In this document: piece after piece, positions 3,018 to 13,592 of the stretch | Layout: each line of letters begins with the position of its first letter | Numbering within the stretch: position 1 is the first letter of the stretch | NCBI GenBank assembly: GCA_045105515.1 | Contig: JBGCDR010000181.1 | Span: 4,460 to 68,459, forward strand | DNA from: Oligoflexales bacterium | GTDB lineage: Bacteria; Bdellovibrionota_B; Oligoflexia; Oligoflexales; Bog-1112 | DNA: 64,000 nt | Reading direction: 5' to 3' | The notes under the pieces: generated by a model | The model's input: only the letters and a program-made list of their open reading frames with translations | Databases searched by the model: none | What the model was told of the DNA's origin: nothing | Translations under genes and position numbers: made by a program

Positions 3018-4775
3018 TTATTTGAACCTTACAACCGATACTCCAGCATTTTCTGCCAATGTTTCTATTTCAATAGAATCATCAGTACTTTGCACTTTGT
3101 AAACAAATGGTTTCGTTTGGTAGAGGCTTATTTCAAAGGTTTCAGAATCGAGACTAGTGGCATTATCAGTGGCGTTTTCAAGCTCACCTCCATTGAATTT
3201 ATAACCATATTCCTTGCCGGAATCCCCTTGGACATTGTTTATATTGGCAATCACATCAGCAGTTTGGTAGCGACTTGCTACATCAAGGCTTGTCCCATCA
3301 AGCATCAATGCCCCAATATAATTTCCAACTATTTCTAGCCAAGAAAAGTCAGTATCAGCATACACAGTTCTGATATTTTTGATTCCTTTGTTCGGTGACT
3401 TAATCACATCAGCATAAAACTTTAACCCAGCACTTGCGCTAAGTGCACCATCTGTATAGCTAATCCCACCTTTCTGACTCATCAAGTAGTGAAGCAAAGA
3501 CTGGCCTGCAGCCCGTCCATACGAATCTAGGCTTGAGTCTGAAGAGGTAAGTGCTGCAGACACAAAGAACGGATAGTTACCTGAGTAGCGGTTTTGGAGA
3601 TAAATACTCGCGTAATTTTCGTAATTACCATCGTTCTTATACCCAAATAAGTCCTCTGCAACATGTGCAGCACCCTCATCAATATATAGGTCATCGAGTC
3701 CATTCTTATAGTAATAAGAGATCGCATGAGACACTTCATGAGCTAAGGTTCCCCAATATTGTCTAACATTGGCATCGGTTTCTCCTAATCCCACTCCAGC
3801 TAGAGTCTCCGTCATTAATAAAACTGGCCGGCCTGCGCTAACAGTCAAATCTTGATTAAAGGCACCAATGATTGAAGTAAGTGCGGAAGAGTGACCTAAA
3901 CCTACAAGGTCCTCAAAATTAGCAAAGATAAAATAAGGCTTAAAAGTGATGCCATTTTTAACTGGGAAGGTATCTTCGTAAATCACGTTCTTATAAATGT
4001 CGAGAATATTTTTAATGGTCGACTCTAAGACAGTCTTATCACTTAGCTTGTCAGAAAGACTATCTGTTACCAAGATCACACAAAAATCATCGTTTTCAAT
4101 GACTGCTTCAATGCTATCTTGTTCACTAACTTCATCATCATCTGTATCAACTCCAACGAAGAGTTCCACATCATCATCAGTGGTTGGACAGCCCTCCATA
4201 AGATTGAGGCTTTGGCCCTTCTTAGGTGTAAGACTGGGCTTAAAACTTGCAATAGAACTCTTAAGAAAAGCAGTCATAGAAGGGGTTGGGTTCAAACTCA
4301 GTTGACTTTGATCTTCTTGCTGAAGCTCATCATAGGTATGCGCTAGGGCCCAGAGTCCGTCATCTTGGGATTCTATTGGCTTCCTACGATTGAATCGATT
4401 CATAATCATTCGGTATATTTGACCCATTGATGCAACATCGGAAGGCTGTAGTAACCTTGCAGAAGATTTTTCTTTGGGTGAGAAACCTCTCAGATTTGCT
4501 GAACTCGGCAAAGTTACCGAATATTCACTTTGGCTCGTATCGCCCCCTTGCACAGTATCAATACTACCCAAGTGATAAGGCATTATTAAATACTCTTGAT
4601 CCACCTCCGCATTTGCAAAGCTCACTGTTGCTTTACCATCACTAAAAGGTTCGACCCATCCGGCTAATGCTGTACTATCACTAGCAGCATCTTCTTCAGA
4701 ATCCGTGCATGCGGACATACACAGTAAGGACATAAAAATCAAACCAGTAAGCCTATAAATGAGGAAAATGCGCAT
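3018..4775 (-). CDS. Lipoprotein with HExxH zinc-metallopeptidase motif
   Basis: 585-aa ORF. The lipobox is 'LLCMSAC', followed by an acidic linker. The single HExxH motif sits in 'WGTLAHEVSHAISYY'. GAGG-type RBS upstream of ATG 4775. Confidence 0.6.
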   Translation of the reverse strand: MRIFLIYRLTGLIFMSLLCMSACTDSEEDAASDSTALAGWVEPFSDGKATVSFANAEVDQEYLIMPYHLGSIDTVQGGDTSQSEYSVTLPSSANLRGFSPKEKSSARLLQPSDVASMGQIYRMIMNRFNRRKPIESQDDGLWALAHTYDELQQEDQSQLSLNPTPSMTAFLKSSIASFKPSLTPKKGQSLNLMEGCPTTDDDVELFVGVDTDDDEVSEQDSIEAVIENDDFCVILVTDSLSDKLSDKTVLESTIKNILDIYKNVIYEDTFPVKNGITFKPYFIFANFEDLVGLGHSSALTSIIGAFNQDLTVSAGRPVLLMTETLAGVGLGETDANVRQYWGTLAHEVSHAISYYYKNGLDDLYIDEGAAHVAEDLFGYKNDGNYENYASIYLQNRYSGNYPFFVSAALTSSDSSLDSYGRAAGQSLLHYLMSQKGGISYTDGALSASAGLKFYADVIKSPNKGIKNIRTVYADTDFSWLEIVGNYIGALMLDGTSLDVASRYQTADVIANINNVQGDSGKEYGYKFNGGELENATDNATSLDSETFEISLYQTKPFVYKVQSTDDSIEIETLAENAGVSVVRFK

Positions 4776-5031
4776 ACCCTGACCTCGTTATAATTATTCA
4801 ATAGTAACTATCATAGCCGAGTCTTTTACTGGAGTCATTATCGATAGTTATAGACTGCTAAATGGGTCTTTTCACCTAGGTAAAAACCCGAGTTTATTTG
4901 TAAAGTGACTTGTAGATTTTGCCTACAGAGTGGATATCCAGGAGTAATCGTAAAGATTGAGCACAAGCTATTGTATAATGAAAGAGATCAACATGATTCA
5001 CGGCAATGGACCTGTAGACTGAGGACAGTAA

Positions 5032-5652
5032 ATGAGCAATTCATTAGATGTAACTTTAAGGGCTACATTTGAAAAGATGCATGTGGTCATCCGGAAAAAT
5101 GCTAAATTGAAATTGATAGAGTCCTCCAAATATGAAGATATCGAGATACAAGAATTCACACCTGAAGACATAGAAAAACTTACTTGGGATCATTGGATCA
5201 CCAGTATTCAACAGAAGACCGATCTAGGATCTTTTTTATTCAATGTCCATTTTTTCTCTAAAGCTGCACGAAAAATGGCCGAGCATGCATTTCAATCTTC
5301 CACCAAAATGTCCTCAAATTTCTCGCAAGCACTCATACAGGAATATACCAATATTACTGGTGGAGCCATAAAACAAAGCCTGGTAGCTGCCGGTGCAAAA
5401 ATCTCTACAGACCTTCTGCAGGTTAATTTACCTGAAAGCAAGCCTAGCTATGACAAGGTCCATTTCACAGGATGGGAGGATAATCCGAAACTTGATAAAT
5501 GGAAGTTTAATTTTAAAGACGATGTTATCTACTGCACCTGCAAAATCGAAATAGCAAATGAAAATGAAATTTTACAACTTCATGAATTAAAATCTATTGA
5601 TGAACTTCATGAAGAAGAAGATACCGAAGACGGTGATATCGACTTTTTATAG
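5032..5652 (+). CDS. CheX/CheC-like (chemotaxis phosphatase fold) protein, paralogue 1, acidic GDIDFL C-terminus
   Basis: 206 aa. The E-x2-N helix 'LIQEYTNITGGAIKQSL' matches the CheX consensus (E-l-x-N-i-x-x-G). It aligns with the next ORF. It ends ...EEEDTEDGDIDFL. Confidence 0.55.
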   Translation: MSNSLDVTLRATFEKMHVVIRKNAKLKLIESSKYEDIEIQEFTPEDIEKLTWDHWITSIQQKTDLGSFLFNVHFFSKAARKMAEHAFQSSTKMSSNFSQALIQEYTNITGGAIKQSLVAAGAKISTDLLQVNLPESKPSYDKVHFTGWEDNPKLDKWKFNFKDDVIYCTCKIEIANENEILQLHELKSIDELHEEEDTEDGDIDFL

Positions 5653-5685
5653 ACTTTATTAAGTTTAGGTTTTAGCCAACACAGC

Positions 5686-6273
5686 ATGGAAATAAACACT
5701 AAACGAGTTTCAGATATTCAAGAAAAAAACCTGCAAGGCCTTTTGCGGCAAGCTTGTAGGTTACGTCTTTACTCGAGCTTAAAAATCGAGGGTGGCGTAG
5801 ATGTCGAAGAGCTTAGCAATCCAGATGACTTTCTATATGGGCAATGGATGTCGGTCATTTTATTATCTGGCCAGGAACTTCAGTGTACTCTTAAAATGCA
5901 TTATTTTAATGAATCAGCGATGGCACTCAGTTCCCATTCACTCGGTTTAGCAAGGGCAAAAATAAAGCCCGGCATGCTGACAGACTATATGCGAGAACTA
6001 ACCAATTTATTTGCTGGAGAAATAAAATCACAGTTATTTGCCAATAAGATTCTAGTTGGCATTAGTCTGCCACTCATAACACGAGGCTTCGATGAAATAC
6101 TCTTTTCAGATAACTTGGGAAAATTTATCGTAAGAGATTATTGGAAATTTCTATGGAGCGGTAACGAAATTGTTTTAACGGCTGAGACTGAGGTGTTTCA
6201 GCCTGAAATATTTAATTCTGTTACAATTAAAGAGTTCAATGCTGAAGACGAAGGCGATATTGACTTCTTATAA
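5686..6273 (+). CDS. CheX/CheC-like protein, paralogue 2, acidic GDIDFL C-terminus
   Basis: 195 aa. 'YMRELTNLFAGEIKSQLFANKILVGISLPLITRG' closely follows the CheX pattern (ElxNxxxGxxk...g..isLP.v..G). It ends ...NAEDEGDIDFL. Confidence 0.65.
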   Translation: MEINTKRVSDIQEKNLQGLLRQACRLRLYSSLKIEGGVDVEELSNPDDFLYGQWMSVILLSGQELQCTLKMHYFNESAMALSSHSLGLARAKIKPGMLTDYMRELTNLFAGEIKSQLFANKILVGISLPLITRGFDEILFSDNLGKFIVRDYWKFLWSGNEIVLTAETEVFQPEIFNSVTIKEFNAEDEGDIDFL

Positions 6274-6292
6274 ACCTTAAGGGAGCCTAACT

Positions 6293-6658
6293 ATGTCAAA
6301 AATTTTAATCGTCGATGACTCCGAAACCTTGCGCTTAGAGCTAAAAACATTTCTCGAAAGCCTTGGTCATTCTGTCGTTGAAGCTGAAAGTGGTCCAGAT
6401 GGACTTGAAAAAATAAGCCAAAATACGGACGTAAATCTGCTTATATCTGATTTTAATATGCCGGGTATGGATGGTATCTCAATGTGCAAAAAGATCAAAG
6501 ATGAAGCGCAATTCGCGAAGCTTCCGATCTTTATGCTAACCACTGAATCGACCCCCGAACTTAAAAGTGTAGGCAAGGAAGCAGGTGTGATGGCTTGGAT
6601 CGTAAAGCCGTTCAGTACTACAAAGCTTAAAACCGTGCTTGATAAAATTCTAAAATAG
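6293..6658 (+). CDS. Single-domain CheY-like response regulator
   Basis: 121 aa with all receiver landmarks: 'ILIVDDSE', phospho-acceptor 'LLISDFNMPGMDG', 'FMLTTE', 'IVKPF'. Confidence 0.9.
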   Translation: MSKILIVDDSETLRLELKTFLESLGHSVVEAESGPDGLEKISQNTDVNLLISDFNMPGMDGISMCKKIKDEAQFAKLPIFMLTTESTPELKSVGKEAGVMAWIVKPFSTTKLKTVLDKILK

Positions 6659-6688
6659 AAGATTTAGGCCGCTTATCCGGGAGACCTA

Positions 6689-7657
6689 ATGACCGATCAT
6701 TCCGACGAGCGAAGAGAGCTTATCAACCAGCACATGCTAGTGGCTCAAAATCTACGTGCTAGCCATAAAATTCTTTTTCAAATTGAAAGATCCAAGGCCA
6801 ATACCGAAACAATGGTCGATTTATTGCCAGACTTCTACTTTGTTATCGATCAAGGTGGCAGGATTCTAAAAGGCAATATCTCTGGTGCTAAGCTTCTTAA
6901 GACTAACACAGATGGGATCATAAACCAGAACGTAGGTCAGCTTTTTTCTTCTGAATCAAGTAACATATTTTTTAATAAAATAAGCAAGTTATCTGACGCA
7001 TATAGACGCACCCGCTTAAACAGAAGTGAGAACAAAACGGTTACCAGCTCATTTGAATTGCCAATTGATGCTGAAGAATACGAAACAAAAAGCATTCATT
7101 GGAACTTAAGAATTTTCGAGGGAGTTAGCCTACGCAGAGGTGCATTGATCTCTATTTTTGGGCGTGACATCACAGAAATTCGCAAGTACGAACAGCAGCT
7201 ATCTGAAATATTCTCAGCAATCCCTCTCGGGATCATGATGATCGACAACAATGGTGATGTAAATGGTCCCTACAGCGCCTATCTAGAATTTTTACTCGAG
7301 CAGGAAACCCTTAAAAACAAAAATATTTATGAAGTCTTATTCGACCCTTCTTCTGAAAATATGACATCAGAAGAAAAAAAAGGGTACCGAGAATTTCAAA
7401 ACGTATTTGGTGCAGATGAAATTTTTTATAAAGTCGATAAAAAGCGCTTTCCCAAAGTACTCAAACTCCCTCTAAAAAATGGTTTTCGTTGGCTAGAAGT
7501 GACCTATCATCCTATTATTAAGGATGAAATGATAAACAAAGTGCTCTTAGTATTTAGTGATATATCTCGACAAATGAAGGAGCAAGAAAAAAATAGCAGC
7601 CAGTCTGAAGATGATTTGAGCTACCATGAAAAGCAAGGAATCATTAAGCGCAGATAA
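6689..7657 (+). CDS. Dual PAS-like sensor protein without an output domain
   Basis: 322 aa. The two PAS-like segments are 'VDLLPDFYFVIDQGGRILKGN...IFGRDITEIRKYEQQL' and 'SEIFSAIPLGIMMIDNNGDV...VLLVFSDISRQMKEQE'. No kinase, GGDEF or HTH motif is visible. GGGAGA RBS. Confidence 0.6.
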   Translation: MTDHSDERRELINQHMLVAQNLRASHKILFQIERSKANTETMVDLLPDFYFVIDQGGRILKGNISGAKLLKTNTDGIINQNVGQLFSSESSNIFFNKISKLSDAYRRTRLNRSENKTVTSSFELPIDAEEYETKSIHWNLRIFEGVSLRRGALISIFGRDITEIRKYEQQLSEIFSAIPLGIMMIDNNGDVNGPYSAYLEFLLEQETLKNKNIYEVLFDPSSENMTSEEKKGYREFQNVFGADEIFYKVDKKRFPKVLKLPLKNGFRWLEVTYHPIIKDEMINKVLLVFSDISRQMKEQEKNSSQSEDDLSYHEKQGIIKRR

Positions 7658-7661
7658 CAAG

Positions 7662-8768
7662 CTAGCCCTGGTTCTCTAAATAAATTTGATCATAAATACT
7701 GAAAAACCTGGTTGCATTATCATTCACCTTAGAATGGTTCTTGCGAAAAGGATAATGAACTGATTGTAAGAACCCAGGCAGAAATTTTAACCAGTACTCT
7801 TCAACCTTTGAGGGTTCCGTTGTTTTAAGTTCGAGGGTGATTGTAGGAAGATTTCTTTCGTTTCCCGCATAATTCCCTAAAGATCCTGGGTAGAATGAGT
7901 AGTCTACTACTCTGTAATTACGAGTTTTCTTTGAAACTGCGTAGACAAACTGCTTTGCTTTTTTTTCAATGCGCGATAAATGTACAGGCTTCTGATCACC
8001 AGGGCCGTCATAATCAAGAAAGCCTAAAGGAGCATGCACTGAGAAAATCTTATCTGGCTTGAACTTGTCGATGAGCTTAACTTGGAAAAGGGTCTCAACC
8101 TCTGTATTGGGAAAGTATCCCGGAAAATATCTCGCAACTCCATTGCGGCGACCCCTCCAAGATTTTCCTGCCTTTTCATACCAATCTAGGGTAAAGAAAT
8201 TTCGATTTACATCCACAATTCGGTTAGTTCTTAGGGGATATTTTTGCAAAAATCCATCAGGATTAACGATAGGTGCGATAATCACTTTAATTCCATGTTT
8301 TATATATACGTCTGGATGAGATTGTAAATACCTCGCAAAACGGAAAGATAGATGAATTGGTGTTAGCTCGTCCGGGTGGACTCCCCCCATGAAGAGAGTA
8401 GTATCCTTCCCGCTACCAAAAGAAGCGTAGATCAGTGGATGACCAGCAACCGTTTTAAGATCGGCACGCCATTGAACACCACCACAGGGGTCACCATACC
8501 AACCATAACGCTTAAAGACCTGCTTAATATTTGTACAAAACTTTTTGATAATCAATGCTTCACGAGGCTGTGCAATAGAATAGTGCGGCATATTGTATGG
8601 GGAAATAAATGGTATTTTAGCCAGCCCCCGCTTCAAGGGTAATGAAGTGGCGATCATCTGCCCTTTGACCGACCATTCCCAAGTGAAGAACAGAACACCG
8701 CCGACAATAAAAAGCTTGGAAGCAATGCCTTTTCTCAGGAAAAACAAGAGAATCCTACTGCACCGCAC
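7662..8768 (-). CDS. M14-family zinc carboxypeptidase (MpaA / murein-peptide amidase-like)
   Basis: 368 aa with an N-terminal membrane or signal segment. The zinc motif is 'MGGVHPDE' (HxxE); 'FSVHAP' and 'PTITLELK' are typical of M14 peptidases. Confidence 0.65.
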   Translation of the reverse strand: MRCSRILLFFLRKGIASKLFIVGGVLFFTWEWSVKGQMIATSLPLKRGLAKIPFISPYNMPHYSIAQPREALIIKKFCTNIKQVFKRYGWYGDPCGGVQWRADLKTVAGHPLIYASFGSGKDTTLFMGGVHPDELTPIHLSFRFARYLQSHPDVYIKHGIKVIIAPIVNPDGFLQKYPLRTNRIVDVNRNFFTLDWYEKAGKSWRGRRNGVARYFPGYFPNTEVETLFQVKLIDKFKPDKIFSVHAPLGFLDYDGPGDQKPVHLSRIEKKAKQFVYAVSKKTRNYRVVDYSFYPGSLGNYAGNERNLPTITLELKTTEPSKVEEYWLKFLPGFLQSVHYPFRKNHSKVNDNATRFFSIYDQIYLENQG

Positions 8769-12053: not shown

Positions 12054-13592
12054 ATGAGTTCAAGTAACGCGAGTACTGCAGAGTTCAGTAAATTAAGACA
12101 GATTCTGTGGCCTATCCATGGATTCGAAATGAAAAAATTTCTACCCATGTTCATCATGTTTGGGTGTGTGAGCTTAAACTACAGTTTATTGAGACTAACC
12201 AAAGATACCTTAGTTATTAACGCAGCATCTTCTGGAGCTGCTGTTCTTCCATACTTGAAGCTTTGGTGCACAACACCTGCAGCTATTCTATTTATGATGT
12301 TTTACATCAAACTCGCATCTATGCTAAGCCGTAAAAACTTATTCTATGCAGCAATGCTTCCATTCCTGCTATTTTTTCTAGTATTTCCATATCTATTATT
12401 TCCCAATATCGATGTACTTCACCCAACAAGCTCCGCTGACGCTCTATTATCTTTCTTACCAGCAGGCCTACATGGACTCGTGGAAGTTTACCGTAACTGG
12501 ACCTTCTCACTTTTCTACGTAATGGCAGAATTGTGGGGAAGTATCTGCTTATCTACCCTCTTTTGGGGATGCGCAAACGAAGTTACCAAAGTAAGTGAAG
12601 CTAAGCGATTCTATGGCTTCCTTGGAATTGGGGCTAATATCCCACTTCTTTTTGTTGGTAGCACCGTTAAGGAGATCCTAAGTTTAAACGACTGGGGCGC
12701 TTCAATTAGAGTATTAATGGGAATTTGCTTCGTGGTTGCTGTTTGTGTAATGGCCTTATACTGGTACCTCAATAACGTGGTTATGGAAGATCCTAGATTT
12801 AAAATCACTGAAGTTAAGAAGAAAAAGAAAAAAGTAAAAATGGGCTTTGCACAAAGCTTAAAAGTTCTTAGCACCTCAAAGTACCTTGCTTGTTTAGCGT
12901 TTATGGTACTCGCATATGGTATCTCCGTAAACCTTGTCGAAGTCTCTTGGAAACAATATGTCAAAGAACTATTCAAAGGTGACAATGCTGGCTATCTCCA
13001 GTTCACCAGTAACTGGATGTCTTACACTGGCCTTGCTAGTATCATTTTTATGTTATTTGGCACCAGCAACAGTTTACGAATCCTAGGCTGGGGAAAAACT
13101 GCACTCATCACTCCCGTCGTCTTGTTCGTCGCATCAGCAGCTTTCTTCGGCAACCTGATGTTTGAAGATGTCATGATGGGCATCATGGGCACTCTTAGCA
13201 TGTCTCCTTTGTTTATCGCTTGTTGGATTGGTGGCTTCCATAATACCTTCGGGAAAAGCTCCAAGTACTCTTTCTTTGACCCCACCAAAGAAATTGCATA
13301 CATTCCGCTTGACGAACACACTAAAAAAACTGGTAAAGCAGCTATCGACGGTGTAGGTGGTCGCCTTGGAAAGTCTGGCGGTGCTGCTATCAACATGATT
13401 TTGATCGGATTACTAGGTTCAGTTGAAGCAATCACAAGCTACGTTGGCGTGTTTACGCTGATTACTATTGGCTTTTGGATTGTAGCTGCGAATGCTCTTA
13501 ACAAGCAGTTTATTGCTCTTACTGAAAAACCAGAAACAACAGAGGCGAACGAGTCTGAAAAATCCTCTGACGCAGTTCCTGCTAAGGCTTAA
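12054..13592 (+). CDS. tlc: ATP/ADP translocase / nucleotide transporter (NTT, TLC family)
   Basis: 512 aa and collinear with my memory of Rickettsia/Chlamydia Tlc. Matching segments are 'LRQILWPIHGFEMKKFLPM', 'NYSLLRLTKDTLV', 'MAELWGS...LFWGCANEVTKVSEAKRFYGF', 'SKYSFFDPTKEIAYIPLDEHTKKTGKAAIDGVGGRLGKSGGA'. About 12 hydrophobic segments. Confidence 0.9.
   Translation: MSSSNASTAEFSKLRQILWPIHGFEMKKFLPMFIMFGCVSLNYSLLRLTKDTLVINAASSGAAVLPYLKLWCTTPAAILFMMFYIKLASMLSRKNLFYAAMLPFLLFFLVFPYLLFPNIDVLHPTSSADALLSFLPAGLHGLVEVYRNWTFSLFYVMAELWGSICLSTLFWGCANEVTKVSEAKRFYGFLGIGANIPLLFVGSTVKEILSLNDWGASIRVLMGICFVVAVCVMALYWYLNNVVMEDPRFKITEVKKKKKKVKMGFAQSLKVLSTSKYLACLAFMVLAYGISVNLVEVSWKQYVKELFKGDNAGYLQFTSNWMSYTGLASIIFMLFGTSNSLRILGWGKTALITPVVLFVASAAFFGNLMFEDVMMGIMGTLSMSPLFIACWIGGFHNTFGKSSKYSFFDPTKEIAYIPLDEHTKKTGKAAIDGVGGRLGKSGGAAINMILIGLLGSVEAITSYVGVFTLITIGFWIVAANALNKQFIALTEKPETTEANESEKSSDAVPAKA

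Follow-up and report, generated by a model that had tools for sequence, protein, structure and literature searches.

Two adjacent genes of an Oligoflexales bacterium, located in a 64,000-nucleotide (nt) stretch of contig JBGCDR010000181.1 (hereafter the window), encode CheX-like proteins that are strongly diverged from each other and end in the same six residues, GDIDFL. The gene directly downstream encodes a single-domain CheY-like receiver. Comparative genomics suggests, with a probability that we put at roughly 0.6, that the shared tail is a substrate-docking peptide for this adjacent receiver. The proteins themselves are of a known kind, CheX-family phosphatases; what we infer to be new is the C-terminal docking motif predicted on them.

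Two anciently diverged CheX-like paralogues with a conserved tail

An earlier note on this DNA had recognized the CheX/CheC helix with its E-x2-N motif in both open reading frames (ORFs), and the helices it quoted, LIQEYTNITGGAIKQSL for ORF1 and YMRELTNLFAGEIKSQL...GISLPLITRG for ORF2, are present as claimed. The role of the motif in CheX is taken from PMC12887009. At the level of the whole family, CheX/CheC homology is clear: 138 of the 148 aligned members match Pfam CheX (PF13690) at E<=0.01 (best 2.6e-9), and the family profile retrieves the CheC-like structures 3iic and 3h2d and the CheX structures 6vpw and 1squ from the PDB (1.5e-9 to 2e-3). Residues E104, N107, and G111 are invariant across the 148 sequences. 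Both AlphaFold models are CheX-like, with a mean predicted local distance difference test (pLDDT) score of 89.8 and a predicted template modelling score (pTM) of 0.86 for ORF2 and a pLDDT of 90.2 for ORF1, and in both models E104 and N107 lie on helix 95-119. The best Foldseek matches of the ORF2 model are 3h2d, 3iic, 6vpw, 1squ, and 3hzh_B (E 1e-10 to 1e-8; template modelling score on the target 0.75-0.80), the last being the Borrelia CheX chain from the CheX-CheY3 complex; below 1e-3, the ORF1 model retrieves only CheC/CheX/FliY/FliM folds. No NCBIfam model matches either ORF, and a single-sequence search of PDB sequences with ORF2 returned nothing relevant. ORF1 and ORF2 are CheX-family proteins with an intact catalytic motif.

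The two proteins align from end to end at 24% identity (E 1e-12), in agreement with the strong divergence that had been claimed for them. Word-indexed searches yielded 7, 3, and then 22 relatives, and an exhaustive profile search yielded 762 cluster representatives (clusters at 50% identity) at E<=1e-3, of which 539 reached E<=1e-10. Family members are about 185-215 amino acids (aa) long, with an N-terminal extension and a conserved C-terminal peptide, and they come, where the source is known, from Oligoflexia and Bacteriovoracia. Two subfamilies can be told apart: type B, to which ORF1 belongs, is marked by LPExxPS[YF]D, instead of which type A, with ORF2, has LPLITRGFD. A protein identical to ORF1 is recorded, without an assigned function, for an Oligoflexales metagenome-assembled genome (MAG) under the name hypothetical protein; the ORF1 orthologues are P0008-P0010, and ORF1-type paralogues also occur in locus L006 and in locus L011, from a second Oligoflexales MAG. 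An ORF1/ORF2-type pair in the same order is kept in a relative at only 33% and 54% identity; the two old subfamilies are paired in L006. ORF1 and ORF2 represent two anciently diverged paralogues from two old subfamilies. Tandem tailed paralogues recur in the window, L011, L006, and L007, and many other loci hold a single tailed gene.

The identical GDIDFL ends of the two proteins are confirmed in the sequence, as is the report that their codons differ at three synonymous sites within 18 nt (ggt gat atc gac ttt tta in ORF1; ggc gat att gac ttc tta in ORF2). Each tail is preceded by an acidic run, HEEEDTED in ORF1 and NAEDE in ORF2. The window contains 540 stop-to-stop ORFs of 40 aa or more; ORF1 and ORF2 are the only ones to end in [DE][IVLM][DE][FWYL][LIVMF], and the strict 5-mer has a frequency of 6e-6 per position in control ORFs (328,140 positions). 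The shared tail exceeds chance.

The tail is a hallmark of the family, not a local oddity. An ending of the form acidic-G-[DE]-[IV]-[DE]-F-[LF]-COOH, after a variable acidic linker, is found in nearly all of the best 150 of the 762 representatives and is kept down to 25-30% identity, with the variants GDIDFL, GEIDFL, GEVDFL, GDVEFL, and GDIDFF in close as well as distant relatives. The earlier note had proposed conservation in orthologues as a check, and the tail is indeed present in them and in far more distant relatives. Counted backwards from the C-terminus in the 148 sequences, L or F occupies the last position in 140, F the second-last in 130, D or E the third-last in 122, I or V the fourth-last in 110, D or E the fifth-last in 115, and G the sixth-last in 103. 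F194 and L195 rank within the 15 most informative columns of the family. By comparison, the 14 residues ahead of the motif are variable and contain 27% D/E, versus 13% for the remainder of the protein. With few exceptions, the chain ends with the motif. In the ORF2 model, residues 191-195 have a pLDDT of 44, and the monomer does not dock its tail in cis; the tail of the ORF1 model is likewise of low confidence and undocked. Conserved terminal residues, a variable acidic linker, and a low-confidence, undocked tail are together typical of a flexibly tethered short linear motif, recognized in trans and probably with its free carboxylate.

One CheY lineage downstream of the tailed genes

A CheY-like receiver had also been reported directly downstream of the pair, and this holds: its ORF starts 19 nt past the ORF2 stop. 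All of D8, D9, D53, T83, and K105 are present (acidic pocket, phospho-acceptor Asp, Thr, and Lys), and the protein carries the signature MLTTES…AWIVKPF, with W102 at the position of E. coli Tyr106. Its closest solved chains are CheY proteins, including 4h60 and 4hnr, which have the same LTTE…W..KPF signature. Among relatives, the receiver is conserved more than the phosphatase (55-96% vs 33-87% identity). The pattern MLTTE…[AG]W..KPF is common to all tail-associated receivers, including those located beside McpA-like genes in Pseudomonas sp. HR96 and Aeromonas sp. BC14. The residues that mark these receivers, namely E85, A101, W102, position 113, and K118 (E. coli E89, G105, Y106, E117, and K122), fall on the beta4-alpha4 loop, beta5, and alpha5, a face that we take to be the binding site of the FliM and CheZ peptides in 1F4V and 2FMF, both among the solved-chain matches of the receiver. 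This comparison is confounded by phylogeny and is a suggestive pointer to the docking face only. The receiver at 6293 is presumed to be both the substrate of the phosphatases and the partner of their tail.

To place the window in a wider context, 80 metagenomic loci were fetched through an alignment of the receiver. Generic N-terminal receiver patterns made this a graded sample of receivers, from 52% to 30% identity to that of the window, in which the low-identity loci served as a built-in control. In 29 of the 41 loci with receivers at 38-52% identity, the gene that immediately precedes the receiver has the ending [IVLM]-x-[FL]-[FL]-COOH, which is seen in none of the 23 loci with more distant receivers (30-37%; Fisher p = 6e-9). 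The carriers come from different families: CheX-like proteins, fusions of a receiver (REC) and CheX, and McpA-like receptors. For example, the CheX-like carriers of L014, L019, and L021 end in EVEFL or ELELF and the REC-like-CheX fusion of L016 in ELELF, whereas about 20 receptor-like carriers (Pfam MCPsignal) end in [DE][IV]TFF, LEFF, or VELF. ELELF, EVELL, and EVDLF also occur among family members and related CheX-like proteins.

A receiver of the same subfamily is located in the cluster of the tailed gene in the window, L011, L006 (twice), L003, L009, L001, and L014. It directly follows the tailed gene in the window, L011, L006 (plus-strand pair), and L014, while a kinase gene lies between the two in L003, L009, L001, and the minus-strand cluster of L006; the tailed gene is set directly against the receiver in L016, L019, and L021 as well. 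L001, L003, and L009 share one arrangement, in which a soluble PAS-PAS-Hpt-HATPase_c kinase and then a receiver of 121-128 aa come after the tailed gene, and L006 holds four tailed CheX-like genes, one kinase, and two receivers. A genome-locus search from one alignment (A1) gave 3 loci only.

The receptor-like carriers connect the tail to a published motif. On plasmids of Pseudomonas sp. HR96 and Aeromonas sp. BC14, the gene order is MCP-CheY-STAS-CheA-MCP-CheW-(CheR-CheD-CheB), where MCP stands for methyl-accepting chemotaxis protein. The first receptor ends in DITFF or DVTFF and the second in DFTRF or DFVRF, the CheR-type pentapeptide. The first receptor is the "McpA-like" receptor of the F7 chemosensory clusters (Ortega et al. 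2020, PMC7184735), whose C-terminus lacks the x-[HFYW]-x2-[HFYW] tether and is yet "highly conserved", with an "important yet unclear" role; it interacted with none of four CheR proteins. The C-termini in Supplementary Table 12 of that study are EVELF (PA0180, VCA1088), EIELF (SO_2117), DIELF, DIDLF, EIDLF, and TVELF. McpA-like C-termini thus follow [DET]-[IVL]-[ED]-hydrophobic-hydrophobic-COOH, like the DIDFL, EIDFL, and EVEFL of the CheX-like family. Under the McpA pattern [DET][IVL][ED]L[FY], the DIDFL of the window fits the first three positions and has the last two swapped; DIDLF, from Marinomonas and Frateuria, differs from it only in the order of these two residues. In stage-2 F7 clusters and in the fetched loci, McpA genes adjoin a CheY with the LTTE…W..KPF signature, as do the tailed genes of the window; the McpA carrier, by contrast, is a receptor and not a phosphatase, and ends in L-F (F-F in the metagenomic set) rather than F-L. 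The tail of the window thus appears to belong to a motif class that has been noted before and left unexplained. Our literature search found no report of the motif on CheX-like proteins and none of a partner for it. That the architecture was undescribed, as the earlier note had supposed, agrees with searches on CheX with a C-terminal or docking peptide and on Bdellovibrio.

Some of the che clusters also encode small helical proteins (L023:4860-5390, L028:8384-8968, and L040:1252-2103), one of them exactly between cheY and cheA; those of L023 and L028 occupy the usual position of CheZ. They carry F-[QY]-D-x3-Q, a YSM/YT..E motif, and the tails EDIELF, GEVDLF, and EELLLF, and they look like remote CheZ analogues. 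They have no Pfam CheZ match at E<=0.01, the motif also resembles the receptor helix EMDRVTQ, and a single-sequence search of PDB sequences with the L028 protein returned nothing relevant. Separately, a CheZ module was considered in the McpA-like receptors themselves, whose LQFQDRVSQ segment is similar to DFQDLTGQ, the active site of CheZ (hhalign E 0.017), with sub-threshold Pfam CheZ matches in 10 of 24. It was rejected, as BLASTP aligns the LQFQDRVSQ region equally well with the canonical helix VSEMDRVTQ of E. coli Tar.

Proposed docking on the receiver and rival explanations

The arrangement that we propose is the following. In each protein, the folded CheX domain, which holds a single E-x2-N catalytic helix, is followed by a variable acidic linker (about 15-25 residues, probably flexible) and by an almost invariant end, G-[DE]-[IV]-[DE]-F-L-COOH. 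The tail would act as a short linear motif that binds the neighbouring CheY-like receiver (LTTE, with Trp at the Tyr106 position), probably on its alpha4-beta5-alpha5 face. Once docked, the substrate would be locally more concentrated, allowing the E-x2-N helix to enter the active site of the receiver and to position a water molecule for hydrolysis, as in the Borrelia CheX-CheY3 complex; the logic would be that of the CheZ C-terminal peptide and of the FliY/FliM N-terminal peptide. A soluble CheA-type (Hpt) kinase with PAS sensors, such as the one adjacent in relatives, would supply the phosphoryl group of the receiver. This kinase must be encoded elsewhere in the lineage of the window, because only its sensor half remains at the locus. 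CheX being dimeric, one may further speculate that the two paralogues act as a heterodimer. To our knowledge, the only known partner of CheX is a phosphorylated CheY-type receiver; because, in addition, the carriers adjoin one CheY lineage and CheR is excluded for McpA, this CheY lineage is the simplest common partner of the tail.

Among known systems, canonical CheX (Thermotoga 1XKO/1SQU, Borrelia 3HZH, Vibrio vulnificus 6VPW) has the same fold as the window proteins, the same single long E-x2-N helix, and presumably the same mechanism of catalysis on a CheY-type receiver. Solved CheX proteins are, however, about 155 aa long, and their profile alignment ends at position 145 of 194, which leaves no room for a linker and tail, both present in the window family; moreover, the window family sits beside PAS-Hpt kinases and not in classical che operons. 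The C-terminal peptide of CheZ tethers phosphorylated CheY. Residues 200-214 of E. coli CheZ (…DDLLDSLGF; domain layout in PMC7750401) resemble the end of the window ORFs, in that a phosphatase carries a flexible linker and an acidic-hydrophobic C-terminal peptide whose last residue is free and either aromatic or aliphatic. The catalytic fold of CheZ is nevertheless unrelated (a four-helix bundle with D-x3-Q), and its tail gives no convincing alignment with the window family. The "CheZ-style" peptide of the earlier note is therefore fair as an analogy and not as homology, and the McpA-like C-terminus is the closer published match. FliY, a phosphatase of the CheC/CheX superfamily, has a CheY-docking peptide as well, and the E-I-D-x-L of the FliY/FliM core LSQxEIDALL resembles E-I-D-F-L; this peptide is N-terminal and lies within the chain, without a free carboxylate, and FliY is a switch-complex protein with two active sites. 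Finally, NWETF-type CheR/CheB tethers need aromatic residues at positions 2 and 5, where DIDFL has I and L, and there is no CheR or CheB gene at the window locus.

Bacterial signalling takes its time constant from dedicated receiver phosphatases, of which CheZ and FliY, unlike CheX, are known to have tethering peptides. With a six-residue motif at the C-terminus as its best-conserved feature outside catalysis, this large CheX subfamily would be a third, independent example of a catalytic domain combined with a substrate-docking peptide, and would provide a simple sequence rule for pairing phosphatases with receivers in the poorly studied predatory or intracellular Bdellovibrionota. More tentatively, and at somewhat less than even odds, [DE]-[IVL]-[DE]-hydrophobic-hydrophobic-COOH could be a general docking motif for the F7-type CheY lineage (LTTE, with Trp at the Tyr106 position), attached independently to CheX-like, REC-CheX, and McpA-like proteins. 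Its sharing by receptors and CheX-like phosphatases points to CheY as the partner of McpA. If so, the conserved McpA C-terminus (PA0180, VCA1088, and SO_2117) would be a CheY tether, which would account for the co-evolution of McpA with the F7 system although the receptor sits in a different array. As McpA-like receptors of Pseudomonas aeruginosa, Vibrio cholerae, and Shewanella share the motif, the hypothesis can be addressed in model organisms, and the CheY subfamily already has a solved structure (4H60, probably V. cholerae CheY4).

Of the original hypothesis of a CheX-fold phosphatase tethered to its receiver, the fold and the conservation of the tail are borne out, while docking onto the receiver is inferred from comparative genomics, and several points weigh against it. 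The association statistics compare phylogenetically different receivers. As the loci were fetched through the receiver, co-occurrence is partly built in, and only adjacency and the identity gradient are informative. The F-L end of the window tails and the L-F end of the published McpA tails are possibly not equivalent. Several loci hold an Hpt-type kinase, a possible alternative partner, and in L007/L008 (Halobacteriovoraceae) three tandem tailed genes have no receiver within 7 kb. The phosphatase activity of ORF1 and ORF2 is itself a prediction from motif and fold. Lastly, their single-sequence Pfam CheX scores, 22.6 bits (E 1.1e-4) for ORF2 and 15.6 bits (E 0.018) for ORF1, fall below the gathering score of 27; we assign both to the CheX family because the family-level evidence (profile, Pfam, models, and invariant motif) is clear despite these sub-threshold values.

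Some of these points would be accounted for if the tail docked a different partner, such as the Hpt-type kinase, the PAS protein, a component of the receptor array, or the flagellar switch, and so localized the phosphatase instead of capturing its substrate, much as E. coli CheZ is localized through CheA-short. The PAS-PAS-Hpt-HATPase_c kinase directly after the tailed gene in L001, L003, and L009 (one is also present in L006) and the PAS remnant kept in the window operon are consistent with this, as are the tails of L007 and the CheA, CheW, CheD, CheB, and STAS proteins also encoded in F7 clusters with the McpA tail. However, the tail is intact in both paralogues of the window and L011, from which the catalytic half of the kinase is absent, L014, L016, L019, and L021 set the tailed gene directly against the receiver, and, L007 aside, no component other than the receiver is shared by all locus types. 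CheR, for its part, is experimentally excluded for the McpA tail (PMC7184735). We regard a different partner as unlikely. A role within the phosphatase, in which the tail would join the partner subunit of a homo- or heterodimer or fold over the E-x2-N helix as an autoinhibiting acidic pseudo-substrate, is improbable. Solved CheX proteins are deposited as two-chain entries and CheX is reported to be dimeric (PMC12887009), tandem paralogues recur in four loci including the window, and the tail is acidic like the active-site face of the receiver; yet the tail is undocked in both monomer models, many loci hold a single tailed gene, and a CheX-internal role leaves unexplained the same tail on McpA-like receptors, which have no CheX domain.

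The almost invariably terminal position of the motif also recalls a degradation or sorting signal, read by a protease adaptor or localization factor, that would control the levels of phosphatase and receptor. Degrons and PDZ ligands typically end in hydrophobic residues with a free carboxylate. The motif is, however, far more specific and acidic than known bacterial C-degrons, no other ORF in the 64 kb has it, and its strict genomic linkage to one CheY subfamily would not be expected of a general degron, which makes this explanation quite improbable. As for a functionless by-product of recent duplication, gene conversion, or chance, the genes are adjacent and six residues are identical. Yet the paralogues share only 24% identity and their old subfamilies occur as a pair in L006 too, the two 18-nt tail sequences differ at three synonymous sites, and the motif is conserved across hundreds of 50%-identity clusters, so that we count this explanation as refuted. 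Docking of the tail on the adjacent receiver remains the reading that we prefer.

Gene neighbourhood and other features of the window

Coordinates of the features discussed above are collected in the table. The gene that follows the receiver encodes a PAS-PAS protein, which matches the L009 kinase in the N-terminal half of the latter (48% identity over 305 aa) and corresponds to the sensor half only, without the Hpt and catalytic half. The truncation is not an assembly error, because the same 322-aa gene is conserved in the second Oligoflexales MAG (L011:7003-7971). The stand-alone PAS-PAS sensor may now regulate something else. No kinase core was found elsewhere in the 64-kb window by tblastn, and no kinase, CheR, CheB, CheW, or receptor is present in it. 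A promoter and terminator scan of positions 4700-7800 gave nothing better than shuffled sequences.

Table. Features of the CheX-like locus (window positions) and McpA-like receptor genes (locus names, with positions where given).
Feature	Position	Strand	Remarks
ORF1, CheX-like phosphatase (predicted)	5032..5652	+	206 aa, type B subfamily
ORF1 E-x2-N active-site motif, E104-Y-T-N107	5341..5352	+	on long helix 95-119 of the model
ORF1 acidic C-terminal linker (…DELHEEEDTED)	5572..5631	+	from sequence; predicted helix 189-199, then low-confidence residues
ORF1 C-terminal tail, GDIDFL-COOH	5632..5649	+	
ORF2, CheX-like phosphatase (predicted)	5686..6273	+	195 aa, type A subfamily (GISLPLITRGFDE)
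ORF2 E-x2-N active-site motif, E104-L-T-N107	5995..6006	+	on helix 95-119; invariant in two alignments
ORF2 linker from folded domain to tail (…NSVTIKEFNAEDE)	6214..6252	+	pLDDT 72 at residues 181-190; sequence and length differ among relatives
ORF2 C-terminal tail, GDIDFL-COOH	6253..6270	+	
ORF2 tail peptide stretch, …EFNAEDEGDIDFL			
Single-domain CheY-like receiver	6293..6658	+	121 aa; Pfam Response_reg E 4.9e-25, NCBIfam CheY 1.5e-23
PAS-PAS protein	6689..7657	+	322 aa; Pfam PAS
McpA-like receptors just upstream of the receiver	L022, L025-L027, L029, L031, L035, L042-L044, L046, L048, L051, L060		
Annotated McpA-like receptor genes	L094:9013-10251; L097:5737-6951		

Several tailed genes outside the window have unusual forms. 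Proteins of 300-319 aa encoded at L006:3864-4766 (minus strand) and L016:1483-2442 combine an N-terminal receiver-like region (with VLVLDDS… in L016) and a C-terminal Pfam CheX domain (1.3e-8 in L016), and have the tails GEVCFL/GELELF; they are natural receiver-CheX fusions that keep the putative docking peptide. The three tandem paralogues at L007:7001-8944 are 203, 199, and 196 aa long and end in GDIDFL, GEIDFF, and GDIDFF; there is no kinase within 7 kb, and the flanks consist of housekeeping genes and a TPR_6 lipoprotein-like gene. P0022 (153 aa), from a JGI contig of 1173 nt, matches radical SAM (PF04055) over its first ~60 residues, and the rest is the C-terminal half of a tailed CheX-like protein; it is probably a chimeric assembly or a miscalled gene.

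In the window itself, a 585-aa protein encoded on the minus strand at 3018-4775, and thus transcribed divergently from the CheX-like operon, has a lipoprotein-like N-terminus and an HExxH-like segment (LAHEVSHAI), with no Pfam match at E<=1e-3. Further downstream, at positions 12054-13592, lies the gene of a full-length ATP/ADP transporter of the TLC type (Pfam PF03219, E 1.4e-167). Such a transporter is a hallmark of energy parasitism, and its presence in an Oligoflexales genome is notable.

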